From positions 1 through 64,000 of the IMG/VR virus record IMGVR_UViG_3300035698_018475: DNA of 64,000 nucleotides; one strand, 5' to 3'. The stretch is from a virus. Position numbers and translations under genes: made by a program. Below, piece after piece: positions 1,529-17,546 of this stretch. Position 1 is the first letter of the stretch. Each line of letters begins with the position of its first letter. The notes beneath the pieces were generated by a model that did not search any database, had not been told where the DNA came from, and was given only the letters and a program-made list of their open reading frames with translations.

Positions 1529-4054
1529 ATGGCACTTCAGAGATCTTTCTTTATTGATGAAGAAGAACTCCTTGCTGAAGAGAAGAAGAGGAGGAGTAAA
1601 AGATCTGGTAAGTCCAGGAGATCCACAGGTTCCACAAGAAAAGTGTTTAATTGTGAGACCTGTGGGTTATACGAGAAATGTCGGTCTCCTAAGATAGAGA
1701 GGTATGGAGAAGGAAGGAAGGGGATACTATTCATAGGGATCAATCCGGGGGCAGAAGAGGATAGATCTGGCATTCCCTTTATTGGAGAGTCCGGGGAGTT
1801 ACTTGAAGATATTGTAGACTGTATGGGACTCAGTCTGGATGAGGATTGTGTGAGGACCAATATAGTACAATGTAGAACCCCAAAGAATAGGCTTCCTACT
1901 GGGGAAGAAATTAAGAGTTGTCAATCAAGACTTATCAAAGATATACAAGAGGTTAAGCCTAAGTTGATTATAACTCTTGGTAAAGAGCCTACAAATACCC
2001 TTTTTCGTATGGTGGGTATGAGTGGTTATGGTATTGGAACCGTTCATGGGTTGGTCTTTCCTTTACAGAAGTTTAATTGTTGGATGGGTTGTACTTATCA
2101 TCCGGCATATATAGTGAGGGAAGGGGAGAAGTCTTATGATAGGGGAGTAGGTAAGAGAGATATACTTGCTTTTGATATTGATGACGCTCTTAGTTATTTG
2201 GATAAACCTATACCATCTATATTGTCAAGAGAGGGTTGTATACTTATACAGGACTCAGTGGATTGTATAGCGATCCTAAAAGAGTTTCAGAGGAATAAAA
2301 ATCCAGTAGCTTTTGATTATGAGACTACTTGTCTATCTGCTTTTAATCCAAAGGGTAGGATATTATTAGTTTCTTTGAGTGATGATCCAGAGGAAGGTTT
2401 TTGTATACCTTTGGGGATGAATGACTGGAATGATGTGGAAGAAGCTTATGTGTATCAAGAGTTTAAGAACTTCCTTGCAAGTGATGTTCCTAAAGTAGTT
2501 CAAAGTTTGAATATGGAAGAACTATGGAGTAGGATACATCTTAAACAACCTATAAATAAGTTTGTATTTGATACCATGATAGGGCATCATGTAATGTATT
2601 GCAGGAAGGGAACTGCCGATCTGGACTTCCAAGTCAGGATGCTTACCGGGGATGATTATAAGGATATGGTGGATAAGAAGAAGTTGGAGAAAGAGCCAGT
2701 ACAGAAGGCAGCTATTTATAATAATTTGGACTCCCGGCATACTGTATTATCTTACCAAACCAATAGGGGGAAGATGGATGATGGTTTGGCCTTTTTTAAT
2801 GAACTGCTTACCAGGGGTAGTGTCGTTATGGCAAATCTTACTGAGAGAGGAGTAAGGATAGATACTGAACTATTAGATACTCTGAAGGAAAATACATCAG
2901 AAGAGGTGGAAATAACTTTAGAGGAAGTAACTTCCTGTAAAGCTGCAAAGAGGTATCGTAAGGAGTGGGGAGATACCATAAATGTTAATTCCGGAGATCA
3001 GCTCATTTCTTTATTGCACGACCTATATGACTGTAAAGTAACAAAACGAACTGGGACTGGAATGCCCTCTACTGATGTTAATACTTTGTCCAAATTAAAG
3101 GAGGGTTGTAAAGATCCCGAGTTGGTAGAGTTCTTGGATTGTCTATCTTCACATAAGAAGGTTTTTAGTTTTCTGGGGAAGATAAAAACATTTGAGAAGC
3201 ATATATGTCAGGATGGGAAAATACATTCCCTGTTCCATCTGGATGTAGCAGAGACTTTCAGGAGTTCAAGTTCTGATCCCAACCTTCAGAATGTTCCCAT
3301 TCATGATGAATTACTGCAATTGATAAGGCAATGTATAGTACCTTCCAAAGGGAATGTGATTATAGAGGTGGATTATGATGGATTGGAAGTTCGTGGTATA
3401 GGAATGAATTCTAATGATAGAACTTTAATTGAGGAAATCAAAGGTGGGGATTCCTCAGATACCCATCGGTCGTGGGGTGCCAAGATATATCAAGTTAAGT
3501 TCAAAGAAGTAACTGAGGAGCAAAGGTACAGATCTAAAAACAGGTTTGTGTTTCCCGCTTTTTATGGGGCTGTTGCACCTTCTATAGCTCGTTCTTTGGA
3601 AATGGAAGAAGACTATGTAAAGGGTTTGTGGGACGAGTTTTGGGATAGATACAGTGACGTTAAAGAGTGGAAAGAGTCTGTAAAAGAGTTTTACCAAGAG
3701 CATGGGTATATCCGTGGGTTGTCAGGTTATAGACGGTATGGACCACTGAATGATGAGCAGTTAGGTAATACTCCAGTACAGGGAATTGCTTTCCATCTTC
3801 TGTTGGATGCCTTAATAAGAGTGGATGATTCTCTCACAGGGAAGTTGGTTAGGAGTGGTTTTAAGACACTACCTATTATTCAAATTCATGATAGTATTGT
3901 GTTTGATACTCCTCCGGATGAGGTGGAAGATGTGGTACCATTTGTTTCTGATATAATGACGTCCAAAAGATTTGATTGGCAATTGGATGTACCACTATCC
4001 GTGAGTTGGAAGATTGGAGAGAACTGGTTGGATATGAAGGATTTGGAGAATTGA
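1529..4054 (+). CDS. polA: Family A DNA polymerase with N-terminal uracil-DNA-glycosylase-like domain and 3'-5' exonuclease
   Basis: UDG domain: CxxC, GINPGAEED..G.PFIG.SG.LL, YHPAY. Exonuclease: AFDYETT. Polymerase: SSSDPNLQN, motif A DYDGLEVR, motif B R..K...F...YG, motif C QIHDSIVF. Confidence 0.93.
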   Translation: MALQRSFFIDEEELLAEEKKRRSKRSGKSRRSTGSTRKVFNCETCGLYEKCRSPKIERYGEGRKGILFIGINPGAEEDRSGIPFIGESGELLEDIVDCMGLSLDEDCVRTNIVQCRTPKNRLPTGEEIKSCQSRLIKDIQEVKPKLIITLGKEPTNTLFRMVGMSGYGIGTVHGLVFPLQKFNCWMGCTYHPAYIVREGEKSYDRGVGKRDILAFDIDDALSYLDKPIPSILSREGCILIQDSVDCIAILKEFQRNKNPVAFDYETTCLSAFNPKGRILLVSLSDDPEEGFCIPLGMNDWNDVEEAYVYQEFKNFLASDVPKVVQSLNMEELWSRIHLKQPINKFVFDTMIGHHVMYCRKGTADLDFQVRMLTGDDYKDMVDKKKLEKEPVQKAAIYNNLDSRHTVLSYQTNRGKMDDGLAFFNELLTRGSVVMANLTERGVRIDTELLDTLKENTSEEVEITLEEVTSCKAAKRYRKEWGDTINVNSGDQLISLLHDLYDCKVTKRTGTGMPSTDVNTLSKLKEGCKDPELVEFLDCLSSHKKVFSFLGKIKTFEKHICQDGKIHSLFHLDVAETFRSSSSDPNLQNVPIHDELLQLIRQCIVPSKGNVIIEVDYDGLEVRGIGMNSNDRTLIEEIKGGDSSDTHRSWGAKIYQVKFKEVTEEQRYRSKNRFVFPAFYGAVAPSIARSLEMEEDYVKGLWDEFWDRYSDVKEWKESVKEFYQEHGYIRGLSGYRRYGPLNDEQLGNTPVQGIAFHLLLDALIRVDDSLTGKLVRSGFKTLPIIQIHDSIVFDTPPDEVEDVVPFVSDIMTSKRFDWQLDVPLSVSWKIGENWLDMKDLEN

Positions 4055-4055
4055 T

Positions 4056-4994
4056 ATGAATCTGGATAAATTCCAAGATATACTTCAAGAAAAGAAGTTA
4101 TTCAGTCCCGGACCAGTACCGAGTAAAATTGAGATAGATATATCTTACAGTCATCGAAGTGATCAGTTTGAAGGTCTTTACAAAGGACTTAAGAATCGTT
4201 TAAGAGGGAAGTTGAATATACCTGGAGAGTATAATATCTTATTTGTTGGTGGAAGTGGTACTTGTGCCATTGAAGCTGTATTAAGTTCCTTACGCAAAAT
4301 GAATATGGATTTTAGGGGATGTGGAGTTTTTTATGAAAGAGCTAAGAAGATAAGGGAAGATTACTCAGATGGTAGTATTAGAAGCAGAGTCTTATATTAT
4401 GTTCAGTTTGAGACCAGTGAAAGTTTTTATGATAATCCAAGAAAAGAAATAGTAAACAGTTATTATTTGGTTGTCGCTGATTGTGTTAGTAGTTTGGGAT
4501 TTTATCCTCTTCCTGAGGCAGATATAATAATAACCAGTTCTTCTAAGATACTTGGTGGTCTCCCGAGTTTGGGTATTATTCTATATAATGAAAATGCTGA
4601 ATCTTATATCAATGGTTATGGGGATTATTTGAATTTATTGAAGTATATAGAATATGATAAGAAAAATCAAACACCCCATACTGCTTTGATCCCACAGTTT
4701 ATTAGTTTGTACCGTTCTTTGGATAACTTGATAACTCCAGAGCAGATTGTGAAAAATTGTAAAGCATTGCATACTAATAGAGTTATATTTAAGTTCGAGA
4801 CCATAGCACCTGTACTTACTATTCTTACCAGAGATCAAGAGCAATTGAACCTTTTTCTAGAAAACTTTAGAATATGGAATATTGAAGTATATTACAATCC
4901 AGCCTATATGAAGAACTGTTTTCAAGTAAGTATGTTTAACTATAGAGATATAAGGTATTACGAGTTAATCAAAACCATTATTGAGGAGTGTTGA
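4056..4994 (+). CDS. PLP-dependent class V aminotransferase (serine-pyruvate/AEP transaminase-like)
   Basis: Motifs FSPGPV, SHRS, GSGT.AIEA, ADCVSSLG, SSSK (PLP lysine) and TPHT. There is no cysteine-desulfurase SxGSAC loop. Confidence 0.8.
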   Translation: MNLDKFQDILQEKKLFSPGPVPSKIEIDISYSHRSDQFEGLYKGLKNRLRGKLNIPGEYNILFVGGSGTCAIEAVLSSLRKMNMDFRGCGVFYERAKKIREDYSDGSIRSRVLYYVQFETSESFYDNPRKEIVNSYYLVVADCVSSLGFYPLPEADIIITSSSKILGGLPSLGIILYNENAESYINGYGDYLNLLKYIEYDKKNQTPHTALIPQFISLYRSLDNLITPEQIVKNCKALHTNRVIFKFETIAPVLTILTRDQEQLNLFLENFRIWNIEVYYNPAYMKNCFQVSMFNYRDIRYYELIKTIIEEC

Positions 4995-4995
4995 G

Positions 4996-5682
4996 ATGAA
5001 TGTAGTTTGTCATGTTTCCGGTGGAGCGGATAGTGCTTTGGCTGCGGTTAAGGCGAAGGTACGTTATGTGCCGGGAAAGAAGATCTATCCTCTATTCTGT
5101 GACTACAATCAGGTTTGTATGGAGCAGGAACTGGCTTGTGCAGCAGGGATAGTTCGTAATCTGGGTTTAGAGGAGTTAAAAATGGTCACTATGAGGGATC
5201 TTTGGACCTCCAGTGGTATGATTGATGGAGAGAGTGAGGAGAATCCTGATGTTTACACTCCACTGCGGAATTTGATGTTTGTCGCTGCAGCTATGGCTTA
5301 TGCAGATATTGTGGATGCAGATATTGTAGTTGTGGGTAGTAAAGGGTTTAGTAAGATACATGATGATCCTTACAGTTTTTATGATAGTACTCTTTCTTTT
5401 TATTCTTTAATGGAAGGATTATGGAATTACACTACTCAAAATAAGAGAATGGTAAAGATACTTCCTATCCTTGCCGAAGGAAGAAGAAATACCATGACCA
5501 AGCAAGAAGTTTATGAACGGTTGGTAGATCATGGAATCGGTTTTAATGATACTTGGAGTTGTTTCAAAGGTGGGGTTGAAGAGTGTGGGGAGTGTCATAA
5601 TTGTAAAATGAAGAAGGCAATTTTTAACATCTTGGATAAGAAGAATAGTAATTATGGTGTTGAGGATAATAGATACAAATAA
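4996..5682 (+). CDS. queC: 7-cyano-7-deazaguanine synthase-like PP-loop ATPase
   Basis: SGGADS PP-loop, Y.Q..E, YTPLRN and a C-terminal Zn site SC...C..C..C. ATG at 4996 follows GAGGAG. Confidence 0.85.
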   Translation: MNVVCHVSGGADSALAAVKAKVRYVPGKKIYPLFCDYNQVCMEQELACAAGIVRNLGLEELKMVTMRDLWTSSGMIDGESEENPDVYTPLRNLMFVAAAMAYADIVDADIVVVGSKGFSKIHDDPYSFYDSTLSFYSLMEGLWNYTTQNKRMVKILPILAEGRRNTMTKQEVYERLVDHGIGFNDTWSCFKGGVEECGECHNCKMKKAIFNILDKKNSNYGVEDNRYK

Positions 5683-5693
5683 AGAGTCAAGGA

Positions 5694-6509
5694 ATGGCTA
5701 AAGAACTTTCTGAACAAGATATTCGGAAGAGGTTAAGAACCAAATATCCACCTCCTGTCTGGATATTCCTAGAGGAGTTAAGCAGGTATAACGGTTTCTC
5801 CCGTGGTTCTATGCGTAGTGCAGATGCTTTTGCAATAAATTTATATCCCTCACAAGGATGTAGTGTGGAGGGGTTTGAGATAAAAATGCAGCGGGGGGAT
5901 TGGTTAAGTGAGTTGAAGAACCCAGATAAGGCAGATGAATTCAAGCAATTTTGTGATAGATGGTGGTTGGTTGTGGGAAGTAGGGATCTTGTGAAGTTAG
6001 AAGAGTTGCCTCCAGGTTGGGGGTTAATGGTGCCATATAATGTAGGGTTAAGCATCAAGAGGGGAGCCCCCATGTTGAAGCCCGATCCTTGGGATATGGC
6101 ATTATTTACCTCTATTCTTAAGGTTGTGAGAGAGAATAGAGAGGATAAAGAGTATATTGATCGTATTAAGCATGAGGAGTTTGAGAGAGGTCAATGTAGT
6201 ACTGCAAGAAATTATACATCTCTGAGAGATAAATTATTTGCACTTGAAAAGTTAAGAGATGACTTTCACAAAAGTACCGGGGTAAAATTAAGCAGTTGGA
6301 ATTTTGAGAAGTTGGGGAAAGCTATTAGAATAGTTATGAGTACTAATAGTCTGCAAGAGTATTATCAAAGTATGCTTAGAATAATGGAACAGGGTACCTT
6401 TGAGCTAGAGCAGAAGGAGAAAAGTCTTTTAGAAATACGGGAAGTGTTAAAGAGTAGAGGTGTAGTTTTTCGTAGAAAAAGACCAGTTTCCCAGGAATGT
6501 ACTTCCTGA
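5694..6509 (+). CDS. PD-(D/E)xK nuclease-like (MmcB-like) protein with coiled-coil C-terminus
   Basis: ADAFAI...GFEIK..R.DW..EL..P.KA...CDRWWLVV matches the phage MmcB-like pattern. Confidence 0.65.
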   Translation: MAKELSEQDIRKRLRTKYPPPVWIFLEELSRYNGFSRGSMRSADAFAINLYPSQGCSVEGFEIKMQRGDWLSELKNPDKADEFKQFCDRWWLVVGSRDLVKLEELPPGWGLMVPYNVGLSIKRGAPMLKPDPWDMALFTSILKVVRENREDKEYIDRIKHEEFERGQCSTARNYTSLRDKLFALEKLRDDFHKSTGVKLSSWNFEKLGKAIRIVMSTNSLQEYYQSMLRIMEQGTFELEQKEKSLLEIREVLKSRGVVFRRKRPVSQECTS

Positions 6510-15339: not shown

Positions 15340-15948
15340 ATGAATAAATACTCTGATTTTCTGGCAGTTACTAAAGCAAGTATATCCAAGTTAGAGAAGG
15401 ATAGAGATATAGTACAAAAAGCTATAAGTAGTAAGAGTACTTTAGTGGAAAATCTTGAAGAGTCCAGGGATCTAATGAACTCTGTGGGTGTAATCTGCCA
15501 GGAGAATATGAAGAATGTCGTTGAAGAACTGGTCAGTCAAGCCCTGGAAGCAGTGTTTGGTGTGGGGCATTGGTTTGAAATGGAGTCCAAAGTTGTCAGG
15601 AATCAACCTGAGATATATATGTATATGGTCAGGGATGGTCAGAGATTTAGTCTCAAGGAAGAGCTGGGTGGTGGTGTGGTGGATCTGGTGTCTTTCATAT
15701 TAAGGATAGTCCTTTGGTCTGTGAGTAGTCCAAGATCGGCAAGTGTCATGATCCTGGACGAACCCGGGAAATTCATATCAAAAGATCTCCAAGAGTCGTT
15801 TGGGGAAATCATATCAGAGCTAAGTAAGATGCTGAGTATTCAGTTCATCCTAATCAGTCATGAGGAAGAACTTATAAAGACTGCAAATATATCATATAGT
15901 GTGATTTTATCCAAGGGTATAAGTACAGTGGAGCGTTTGGATGAGTAG
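15340..15948 (+). CDS. sbcC: SbcC/Rad50 ATPase, C-terminal half (signature, Walker B, H-loop)
   Basis: SLKEELGGGVVD (ABC signature variant), MILDEPGKF and FILISH. Probable ATG at 15340. Confidence 0.85.
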   Translation: MNKYSDFLAVTKASISKLEKDRDIVQKAISSKSTLVENLEESRDLMNSVGVICQENMKNVVEELVSQALEAVFGVGHWFEMESKVVRNQPEIYMYMVRDGQRFSLKEELGGGVVDLVSFILRIVLWSVSSPRSASVMILDEPGKFISKDLQESFGEIISELSKMLSIQFILISHEEELIKTANISYSVILSKGISTVERLDE

Positions 15949-16498
15949 TAATTTAGATAATCTCTCTTTGTTTTATACTGCAAATCAATTGGACAAAGTT
16001 TTTCACAAGATGCTTGTGGAAATAGTAGCGAGGATGAATGAGGATGATGTTTTTATCACAGTTCTGAAGGGAGGTCCTTTTGTAGCTTCTCGTCTATTTT
16101 CTGAGTTCATCTTGGGGGATGAGGTAATCTTTGATTTTGTTGGTATAAGAAGTTACAAGCATGGGGAGACCAAATCAGGGGAACTTGATTGTTATTGTCC
16201 ATTAACTCTTTCTCCCGAATTGGTTGATGGTAAGAATATTTTTATCATAGATGATGTGATAGAGACAGGGAAGACTCTTCTTAGTATAAGAGTAGCTTTG
16301 TCGTTTAAGTATAATCCTAAGAACATCTACACTTGTGTACTGGTTAATAAGGAAAGTGATGAGAGAGTAGATGATTACCAACTCGATATTGTTGGAGTAG
16401 AATATGATGGTACTAGGTTCTTGGTTGGTTGTGGTATGGATTTTGAGGAACGTTATCGTGGATTAGATGATATTTATACTATGGATCCAGGAGATTGA
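15941..16498 (+). CDS. hpt: Hypoxanthine/guanine phosphoribosyltransferase
   Basis: VLKGG..., PRPP loop IIDDVIETGKTL, FLVGCGMDFEERYRGL. Confidence 0.88.
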   Translation: MSSNLDNLSLFYTANQLDKVFHKMLVEIVARMNEDDVFITVLKGGPFVASRLFSEFILGDEVIFDFVGIRSYKHGETKSGELDCYCPLTLSPELVDGKNIFIIDDVIETGKTLLSIRVALSFKYNPKNIYTCVLVNKESDERVDDYQLDIVGVEYDGTRFLVGCGMDFEERYRGLDDIYTMDPGD

Positions 16499-16501
16499 TA
16501 T

Positions 16502-17119
16502 ATGCAATTAGTTAAACCTTCAATTGAATTTATGTCGATTACAGAAAATCCTCTACAAGCTATTGAACTGGCTGGAAGGACTTGCTATAAGAGTGAGGAT
16601 AAGATTACCCCAGATTCGGCACAGCAGTTTGTTCGTAAGTTACTAACCCGTGGACATCTAGCTATGATTGAGCATGCTTCTGCGAGTAATCGAGTAATCT
16701 GTGATAGAGGGGTGACTCATGAAGTTGTTAGACATCGACTTTTTAGCTATGCTCAAGAGTCTACTCGATACTGTAATTATTCTGGTGGTGTTACTTACAT
16801 ACAGCCTCCTTGGGTAAGTGAAAAAGCTGTAAGTGATACGGATGTAATTTGGCATCATTGTATGTTTGAATGTGAATCAGCATATAAAAAATTATTAACC
16901 CGTGGTTGGACACCACAAATGGCACGCGGTGTATTGCCTAATGCACTTAAAACTGAAATCGTTATAACGGGGAATCTTCGGGAGTGGTTACACTTTTTTA
17001 CCCTAAGGTGTGCAAAGACCGCACACCCACAGATGCGAGAAGTAGCTGATATGTTACTTACGGATATACAGGGGAAAGTACCTATAATTTTTGATAGGAT
17101 AAAGTTGGAAGGAGCTTAA
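16502..17119 (+). CDS. thyX: FAD-dependent thymidylate synthase
   Basis: AGRTCYKS, GH.AMIEH, THEVVRHR..SYAQESTRY, ARGVLPN. Confidence 0.95.
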   Translation: MQLVKPSIEFMSITENPLQAIELAGRTCYKSEDKITPDSAQQFVRKLLTRGHLAMIEHASASNRVICDRGVTHEVVRHRLFSYAQESTRYCNYSGGVTYIQPPWVSEKAVSDTDVIWHHCMFECESAYKKLLTRGWTPQMARGVLPNALKTEIVITGNLREWLHFFTLRCAKTAHPQMREVADMLLTDIQGKVPIIFDRIKLEGA

Positions 17120-17120
17120 T

Positions 17121-17546
17121 ATGTTATTGGAAAAGACTTATACAGTTGATTATGCTCATCGTCTGAAAGATCATAAAGGTTTGTGCTGTAATTTGCATGG
17201 TCACACTGGAGTGGTTGAGATCTCTCTTAGTGGAGAGATTCAGCAAGATGGTATGATCATAGATTTTGGTCATCTTAAATGGTTGGAAGCCATAGTGAAT
17301 AAGTTGGATCATGTTGTACTTGTTCAACAAAGTGATGAGTTGTTGAGAGCTCTTAGTTCTTGTAATTTCAGTTTTAAGATAGTAGTATTTTCAGGTCCAC
17401 CTACGGCAGAAGCCATAGTTCTATACTTAGGAAAGGCCATAGGTACACACTTGAAAGAAATGGGATCAACAATAACTCTTCAGCGGATTCGTTTTGCAGA
17501 GACTCCCGGTAATGTCGTAGAGTGGAAATATGGGAGAGTAGTATGA
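17121..17546 (+). CDS. queD: 6-carboxytetrahydropterin synthase
   Basis: AHRL..H.G.C..LHGH, DFG.LK, LDH, PTAE and ETP. Confidence 0.9.
   Translation: MLLEKTYTVDYAHRLKDHKGLCCNLHGHTGVVEISLSGEIQQDGMIIDFGHLKWLEAIVNKLDHVVLVQQSDELLRALSSCNFSFKIVVFSGPPTAEAIVLYLGKAIGTHLKEMGSTITLQRIRFAETPGNVVEWKYGRVV

Follow-up and report, generated by a model that had tools for sequence, protein, structure and literature searches.

What does a pyridoxal phosphate (PLP)-dependent enzyme contribute to a viral 7-deazaguanine pathway? The question is raised by the first 64 kb (64,000 nucleotides, the window analyzed here) of the 124,322-bp viral record IMGVR_UViG_3300035698_018475, in which a gene for a class V aminotransferase-like protein lies between polA and a queC-like gene. 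An earlier note on this DNA had suggested that the enzyme either aminates a carbonyl intermediate, providing a QueF-independent route to a preQ1-like base, or supplies an amine side chain. The preferred answer, given a probability of roughly 0.45, is that the PLP enzyme works as a pair with the QueC-like ATPase in a tailoring module of a DpdA-dependent 7-deazaguanine system, ligating a phospho-amine to 7-carboxy-7-deazaguanine (CDG). The three genes are organized as follows.

1529-4054, plus strand: polA (Pfam DNA_pol_A 1.3e-64, UDG 2.4e-23, exo 4.8e-05), stop codon TGA at 4052-4054.
4056-4994, plus strand: PLP enzyme of 312 aa, class V fold, AGXT/AEPT/SerC subgroup, shortened and divergent, with ATG at 4056 and stop codon TGA at 4992-4994.
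4996-5682, plus strand: QueC-like PP-loop ATPase of 228 aa, with ATG at 4996 (PF06508, 94 bits against a cut-off of 22).

The intergenic gaps between polA and the PLP enzyme gene and between the latter and the QueC-like gene are 1 nt each by open reading frame (ORF) calls and inspection of the sequence, as the earlier note had reported. A Shine-Dalgarno sequence, GAGGAG, is positioned 7-8 nt 5' of ATG 4996; the QueC-like ORF has an alternative earlier start at TTG 4981, but ATG 4996 is preferred because it fits the MNVVCHVSGGADS start of the homologues.

The association of the PLP enzyme with QueC extends well beyond this genome. Loci were gathered around relatives of the PLP enzyme (12 IMG/VR, 49 metagenome, and 2 bacterial) and annotated by ORF calling, BLAST, and local hidden Markov models, together with a Pfam search of the records. 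A QueC-like gene directly adjoins the PLP enzyme gene in ∼20 distinct viral or metagenomic loci (L007-L011, L014-L018, L026/27, L030-34, L036-38, L061, and L082), with PLP enzyme identities of 27-56% across the paired loci and varied gene orders, including FolE-PLP enzyme-QueC-DpdA, PLP enzyme-QueC-QueD-QueE-FolE-DpdA, and DpdA-QueC-PLP enzyme-HAD (haloacid dehalogenase-type phosphatase). Adjacency in this many loci and in such varied orders shows that the pairing is conserved over many distant viral contigs, contrary to one of the refuting outcomes that the earlier note had named. Neighboring genes coding for proteins of 375-397 aa in the related loci give weak matches to tRNA-guanine transglycosylases, and the viral QueCs with a canonical YxQxH motif (L081 and L104) have no PLP enzyme nearby.

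The PLP enzyme is very probably a true member of the deazaguanine pathway. It is quite improbable that it is instead an auxiliary metabolic gene, acting in serine or phosphonate metabolism or in glycan synthesis, with its position beside queC being accidental. Such a role would suit the distant relatives that serve glycan and teichoic-type clusters, the large glycosyltransferase-rich glycan island that the ORF pattern reveals in this genome, and the remote relative P0200, an 856-aa single chain that joins a HAD phosphatase, a class V aminotransferase, and a D-2-hydroxyacid dehydrogenase in a SerB-SerC-SerA-like triple fusion, which would amount to a phosphoserine pathway in one polypeptide. 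However, the QueC adjacency survives reshuffling of the other cluster genes across lineages with identities of 27-56%, and it is also present in small contigs and in phages with no such glycan island inside the fetched flanks; moreover, the genes are coupled at 1 nt, and the partner QueC belongs to a special clade seen only with the PLP enzyme.

The remainder of the pathway is encoded elsewhere in the record, where the earlier note had proposed looking for folE, queE, queF, and dpdA; all of these except queF were found, together with queD (coordinates are those of the whole record).

111386-111937, minus strand: FolE (profile match 1.2e-64).
17121-17546, plus strand: QueD, 6-carboxytetrahydropterin synthase (PF01242, 85 bits, 4e-25), located away from the block described below.
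121208-121972: QueE candidate of 254 aa, with radical SAM/Fer4_12 matches and homologues that sit in related clusters.
122593-123744: DpdA of 383 aa, matching the annotated DpdA/Tgt proteins of 186 phages with E values down to 9e-28.

FolE, QueD, QueE, and DpdA are therefore all encoded by the phage, which at the gene level has what a DpdA-dependent 7-deazaguanine DNA modification system requires. The DpdA is 30-33% identical to annotated DpdAs and its relatives include those of phages Iggy, PaMx25, and RHEph04; a PF01702 profile search gives no match in the genome, DpdA included. No QueF was found in the genome or in 12 related records, and weak QueF matches in the related records were rejected, as they lie inside FolE genes (with which QueF shares the T-fold) and are below the cut-off. 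Neither a second QueC-family gene nor a HAD phosphatase gene was found in the genome, and scans of the block turned up no match to Gat-QueC, ArcS, or DpdL/M/N, with QueF alone having been searched for directly.

Several of these genes probably form a single block with polA. The record has a 127-bp repeat at both ends that looks like an assembler overlap, 127 bp being a common assembler k-mer, and the ends are probably those of a circular assembly and not of the virion DNA. The genome is treated as a closed circle for this reason, and on the resulting circular map QueE, a 193-aa protein (u193), DpdA, a zinc finger protein, a clamp, polA, the PLP enzyme, and QueC are contiguous. The order DpdA-clamp-polA recurs in phage Iggy and in loci L007, L009, and L018.

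Some of the genes that accompany the pathway have features of their own. The u193 gene (121991-122572 of the genome, equivalent to L022:2991-3572) is located between QueE and DpdA, and proteins of 193-221 aa resembling it are encoded directly 5' of the PLP enzyme in L007 (621-1274) and L008 (7231-7896), although the similarity is weak (38% over 50 residues). It has no Pfam match even at an E value of 0.1 and may be a further pathway component. The DpdA stop codon is overlapped by an ORF for a 142-aa protein (123744-124172; L022:4744-5172) with a C2H2 zinc finger of the zf-met/double-stranded RNA-binding type (PF12874 and PF12171), which is unusual for a phage. Directly 5' of QueD are genes for a type I phosphoribosyltransferase (185 aa, PF00156) and ThyX (15941-17546 together with QueD); the phosphoribosyltransferase could hint at nucleotide-level handling of a base, and in the related loci it does not adjoin the pathway genes.

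The PLP enzyme itself is a divergent protein. Its PF00266 score (13.1 bits, E value of 0.046) is under the 21.5-bit cut-off, although several homologues do pass, and because of this its assignment to class V rests on comparison of the family profile with the PDB and on an AlphaFold model. A profile built from 23 homologues matches PH1308 (2dr1) at 8e-28 and a 2-aminoethylphosphonate transaminase (AEPT) at 1.5e-24, and phmmer likewise matches the enzyme to PH1308 and AGXT-type structures. The model (pLDDT of 95.1) is matched by Foldseek to PDB entries 2dr1, 3f0h, 7e7g, and 3ffr, with TM scores of 0.78-0.83 and E values of ∼1e-18. By profile and predicted structure the enzyme is therefore of the class V fold and the AGXT/AEPT/SerC subgroup, in agreement with the earlier note, which had also described its PLP lysine and aspartate motifs as intact. 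These are SSSKILGG, with K164 (4545-4547), and ADCVSS, with D142 (4479-4481); both residues are invariant in the 23 homologues and align with SSSQK and DAVS of PH1308 and with the PLP lysine (K193) and aspartate of AEPT. A NifS/DndA-like cysteine desulfurase with a PP-loop thiolation partner was considered and rejected, as the fold and profile matches are to AGXT/AEPT/SerC and the partner is a QueC-family protein with the QueC zinc cysteines.

A departure from these relatives is at the substrate-binding site. The C-terminal substrate-binding arginine of AEPT (the FRVG strand, FRVGCIG) aligns, with moderate alignment confidence at this position, to Q290 (FQVS), which is invariant in the family, and the enzyme may thus not handle an alpha-carboxylate in the usual manner. 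It could be a transaminase for a carboxylate-free substrate or a decarboxylase. The enzyme has 57 homologues in a set of 5.8 billion clustered proteins, no PHROGs family, and no tblastn match among 50,697 GenBank phage records, including ViI, M6, and PaMx11-type phages.

The genomic contexts of the wider family offer a clue to the product. More distant relatives (25-38% identity) are found in clusters without deazaguanine genes, where their neighbors include RimK-type ATP-grasp ligases (L013, L047, and L052), NT5C-like HAD phosphatases (L013 and L050, with a methyltransferase-HAD fusion in L044), MobA/IspD-type cytidylyltransferases (L012 and L024), and TagF-like glycerophosphotransferases (L024 and the L062 group). 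Deazaguanine and other contexts are interleaved in the family tree, a quick IQ-TREE tree with SH-aLRT support, with at least five changes of context label forced by well-supported branches; the deazaguanine locus L038 is sister to a cytidylyltransferase clade, L016 to a TagF clade, and L018 to an ATP-grasp clade. Of the 34 best cluster representatives, ∼12 have a HAD-like domain at the N terminus in which the four HAD motifs are complete, and within the deazaguanine clusters a HAD domain is fused to the PLP enzyme in L034, L036, and L039 and encoded adjacently in L016, L017, and L057. Other fusions place the HAD domain on either side of the aminotransferase domain or a cytidylyltransferase domain ahead of it, and there are also forms with a methyltransferase. 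Cytidylyltransferases require substrates that are phosphorylated or phosphonylated, ligases require an amine, and HAD phosphatases take a phosphate off. The simplest explanation that covers all of these partners is that a small free phospho-amine is the product of the PLP enzyme and is passed to differing downstream enzymes.

In L024:3888-15567 (a Candidatus Melainabacteria metagenome-assembled genome) and in L023, a PLP relative with 35% identity is encoded together with a MobA/IspD cytidylyltransferase, a methyltransferase, a FemAB/GNAT-like protein, and a TagF-like glycerophosphotransferase, and an 866-aa fusion of an alpha/beta-hydrolase and a thiamine pyrophosphate enzyme is encoded downstream on the L024 map. 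From its gene content, the L024 cluster looks like one for CDP-activated amino-alcohol or phosphonate decoration of the cell surface.

These contexts also bear on a reading in which the PLP enzyme acts on the deazaguanine itself, either converting 7-formyl-7-deazaguanine to preQ1 without QueF, in line with the first of the two mechanisms suggested in the earlier note, or acting on an amino group of the base once it is in DNA. QueF was indeed not found in the genome or in the 12 related records, and PLP enzymes that act on DNA-borne side chains are known from thymidine hypermodification (PMC8989533 and PMC11472151). However, no carboxylate or nitrile reductase that could make the aldehyde is conserved in the clusters, and glycan or teichoic-type clusters without deazaguanine genes encode close relatives of the enzyme, several of which branch within the phage sequences; a QueF-independent preQ1 route is disfavored for these two reasons. 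The lack of any match to the enzyme in the ViI, M6, and PaMx11-type phages also speaks against action on the base, which is very unlikely overall.

The QueC-like protein is atypical and differs from canonical QueC in ways consistent with a change of amine. It is only 20-27% identical to Escherichia coli QueC, and its best PDB sequence match is not QueC but Cap9 (9nto); tblastn at 1e-5 finds no match among the 50,697 GenBank phages, and a large protein collection contains only 15 close relatives. Judged against the canonical QueC signature defined by Libby et al. 2026, which includes YxQxHxxE, the protein retains SGGxDS (as VSGGADS), the PxRN loop (TPLRN keeps P, R, and N of the canonical VPxRN), and four zinc cysteines. 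The YPDC motif is changed to [F/Y]-x-D-[S/C] in the clade (FYDS here), keeping the aromatic residue and the Asp but losing the Pro, with the Cys mostly replaced by Ser. YxQxHxxE is replaced here by YNQVCMEQE (Y37-x-Q39-(x)5-E45), which has no His and has one extra residue before the Glu, and the position of the canonical His is filled by C, Y, S, or P across the clade paired with the PLP enzyme. There is in addition a GSKGxxK insertion, and the cysteine motif is C189-(x)7-C197-xx-C200-xx-C203 as opposed to the canonical C(x)8CxxCxxC; most partners have C(x)7C, and L015 has C(x)10C. In a phylogenetic tree the QueCs paired with the PLP enzyme form one clade, separate both from E. coli QueC with a canonical viral QueC and from a clade of cassette QueCs (the '443-QueC(206)-225' cassette).

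Both altered spacings are shared with Cap9, whose motif variants are Y/FxQ(x)5E and CE(x)6CxxCxxC (PMC13329287); the QueC-like protein has YxQ(x)5E and C(x)7CxxCxxC. Cap9 joins CDG to a protein amine in place of ammonia, using QueC chemistry (bioRxiv 10.1101/2025.04.06.647259). No CD-NTase or Cap10 gene neighbors the QueC-like gene.

The cassette referred to above is found in ∼20 IMG/VR contigs (L084-L103) and consists of genes coding for proteins of ∼131 aa and ∼443 aa, a 206-aa QueC-family protein, and a protein of ∼220 aa. Its QueC gene is at ∼5001-5570 of each locus and codes for YGQHCAE and C(x)7CxxCxxC motifs, with a Pfam QueC score of 110 bits, and FolE, QueD, and QueE are not found nearby. 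It may be a Cap9/CBASS-type (cyclic oligonucleotide-based antiphage signaling system) or other QueC-based defense carried by phages or prophages.

A conservative interpretation of these features is that the QueC-like protein is an ordinary, fast-evolving synthase of preQ0 or 7-amido-7-deazaguanine (ADG), helped indirectly by the PLP enzyme, for example through local supply of nitrogen or ammonia like the glutaminase domain of Gat-QueC, with the DNA base being an already known one, dPreQ0 or dADG. The protein passes the Pfam QueC threshold, keeps the SGGxDS motif, the RN loop, the aromatic residues, and the zinc cysteines, and yields a model that matches QueC structures; furthermore, some phage QueCs are known to carry a fused domain that supplies nitrogen (PMC6884629). 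This interpretation is nonetheless unlikely, since release of ammonia for a partner is not normal for enzymes of the aminotransferase fold, the partners of the relatives (cytidylyltransferases, TagF-like transferases, and HAD phosphatases) call for a small phosphorylated compound and not for ammonia, and the fused HAD domain would be left without a role.

Supply of a phospho-amine is favored over amination of a carbonyl because the family contexts, the HAD fusions, and the atypical QueC all fit supply, so that of the two suggestions made in the earlier note it is the side-chain one that is strengthened. In the proposed pathway, FolE, QueD, and QueE would generate CDG, as their family memberships predict, and the PLP enzyme would convert a common phosphorylated metabolite to a small phospho-amine. 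Candidate amines are (S)-serinol phosphate derived from dihydroxyacetone phosphate, ethanolamine phosphate or phosphoserine by a serine branch, and, less likely, 2-aminoethylphosphonate. The QueC-like enzyme would adenylate the CDG carboxylate, as QueC and Cap9 do, with the phospho-amine attacking instead of ammonia, and the reaction would end at an N-substituted 7-carboxamide rather than at the nitrile preQ0. In lineages with a fused or adjacent HAD-like phosphatase, this enzyme would strip the phosphate. DpdA would then swap guanine in DNA for the tailored base, or alternatively DpdA would insert CDG and ligation would follow on the DNA. The predicted outcome is a new amide-type 7-deazaguanine in virion DNA, presumably shielding it from host nucleases.

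Several observations weigh against this proposal. The phage itself has no recognizable HAD phosphatase, the PLP enzyme, in which the carboxylate-binding Arg is a Gln, could catalyze decarboxylation and not transamination, and the glycan island could in principle use the amine. The amine and the product are both assigned by sequence-based prediction. The QueC-like clade keeps most of the essential canonical residues (Y35, R99, and aromatic residues at the positions of Y131 and Y189), and the enzyme could still make ADG or preQ0. The clade paired with the PLP enzyme is not sister to the putatively Cap9-like cassette clade in the tree, and Foldseek matches the QueC-like model equally well to QueC and Cap9 structures; because the tree does not join the clades and Foldseek does not separate QueC from Cap9, the likeness to Cap9 is a lead and does not amount to family membership. 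Lastly, no fusion of the PLP enzyme to QueC was found in a search for its long fusion forms, although this is weak evidence.

The proposed system resembles several known ones in part. Known phage DpdA systems combine FolE, QueD, QueE, and QueC with DpdA, as in Escherichia phage CAjan and Pseudomonas phage Iggy (Hutinet 2019, PMC6884629; Cui 2023, PMC10516641). The core of FolE, QueD, QueE, a QueC-family enzyme, and DpdA is shared with these, as is the DpdA-clamp-polA order with Iggy, but here there is an extra class V PLP enzyme coupled to queC, and the QueC is of a divergent clade with no relative among the GenBank phages. Cap9, of type IV CBASS (Wassarman et al. 2025; PDB 9nto), is likewise a QueC-family PP-loop enzyme with the same YxQ(x)5E and C(x)7CxxCxxC spacings and demonstrates that amines besides ammonia can be coupled to CDG on a QueC scaffold (Wassarman et al. 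2025). However, Cap9 modifies a protein N terminus together with a CD-NTase and Cap10 in bacterial defense, whereas the QueC-like protein has a PLP partner, no CD-NTase, and a phage DNA modification context.

The closest parallel in logic is the Campylobacter jejuni capsule module, in which the transaminase Cj1437 makes serinol phosphate, the ATP-dependent amide ligase Cj1438 acts on glucuronate, and the HAD phosphatase Cj1435 completes the set (PMC11800397). As in the scheme proposed here, a PLP enzyme (Cj1437/Cj1436) provides serinol phosphate or ethanolamine phosphate, which is ligated to a carboxylate (Cj1438) and dephosphorylated by a HAD enzyme (Cj1435), and relatives of the phage PLP enzyme adjoin both ATP-grasp ligases and HAD phosphatases. 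The C. jejuni ligase is, in contrast, an ATP-grasp enzyme acting on polysaccharide glucuronate, and Cj1437 is not among the PDB relatives of the PLP enzyme family in the profile search; the resemblance is in workings and not in membership.

The nearest solved structures and profiles are those of PhnW/AEPT (including the PntC-AEPT fusion) and the PH1308-type serine aminotransferases. The cytidylyltransferase association of PntC-AEPT recurs in the PLP relatives L012, L024, and P0102, but identity to AEPT and PH1308 is 15-19%, the phage enzyme is ∼50-70 residues shorter, and the phosphonate/carboxylate-binding Arg is a Gln; neither a phosphoenolpyruvate mutase nor a phosphonopyruvate decarboxylase was noted among the genes of the phage clusters. 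A carboxyl handle on a DNA base has a precedent in CmoX/CmoY of Synechococcus phage S-B43, in which CmoY ligates glycine to the carboxyl handle of carboxymethylcytosine in DNA (PMC12783734). The carboxyl group similarly serves an adenylating amide ligase that adds an amine, but in that system a pyrimidine is modified by a homologue of asparagine synthetase, and there is no PLP enzyme making the amine.

Other features of the region are also unusual. PolA has an N-terminal domain of the uracil-DNA-glycosylase superfamily (PF03167, residues 60-200) preceding the exonuclease and polymerase domains. The gene immediately following the QueC-like gene (5694-6509, 271 aa) has matches to phrog_14517 and to a PHROG annotated as 'DNA repair protein'; the protein has a weak MmcB-like (PD-(D/E)XK-type) match, and its C-terminal part is weakly similar to a baseplate hub assembly catalyst family. 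The strands differ strongly in composition: the GC skew is ∼+0.26 across the co-oriented plus-strand block (1-98.9 kb) and -0.17 across the minus-strand block (99-121 kb), and megablast of the first 12 kb finds no match among GenBank phages.

The earlier note knew of no class V transaminase in phage 7-deazaguanine pathways, and the key literature is in accord: the main papers on viral 7-deazaguanines (PMC6884629 and PMC10516641) and the 2026 survey of the QueC family mention no PLP or class V enzyme, and a full-text literature search for deazaguanine with pyridoxal returned nothing relevant. Viral DNA is known to contain eight 7-deazaguanine derivatives (Cui et al. 2023, PMC10516641), all of them explained by QueC, QueF, ArcS/Gat-QueC, or DpdL/M/N chemistry, and the conserved module of a PLP enzyme and an atypical QueC points to a further, probably bulkier, amide-linked base. 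The carriers found are metagenomic or IMG/VR viral contigs only (0 of 50,697 GenBank phage records), which would account for the absence of such a base from mass spectrometry reports on the nucleosides of cultured phages.

Tentatively, this phage and many other uncultured ones may make a family of amide-type hypermodified 7-deazaguanines, such as 7-[N-(hydroxyalkyl)carboxamido]-7-deazaguanine, with QueC repurposed to ligate CDG to an amine that a dedicated PLP enzyme provides, a HAD phosphatase participating in some lineages, and the amine-supply module being common to bacterial glycan and teichoic-type pathways. If true, the QueC scaffold, already used to make preQ0 and to deazaguanylate proteins, would have a third use in small-molecule or DNA chemistry. 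Bases of this kind affect evasion of restriction and CRISPR as well as the sequencing and detection of phage DNA, and the module may provide a new enzymatic handle for DNA functionalization.

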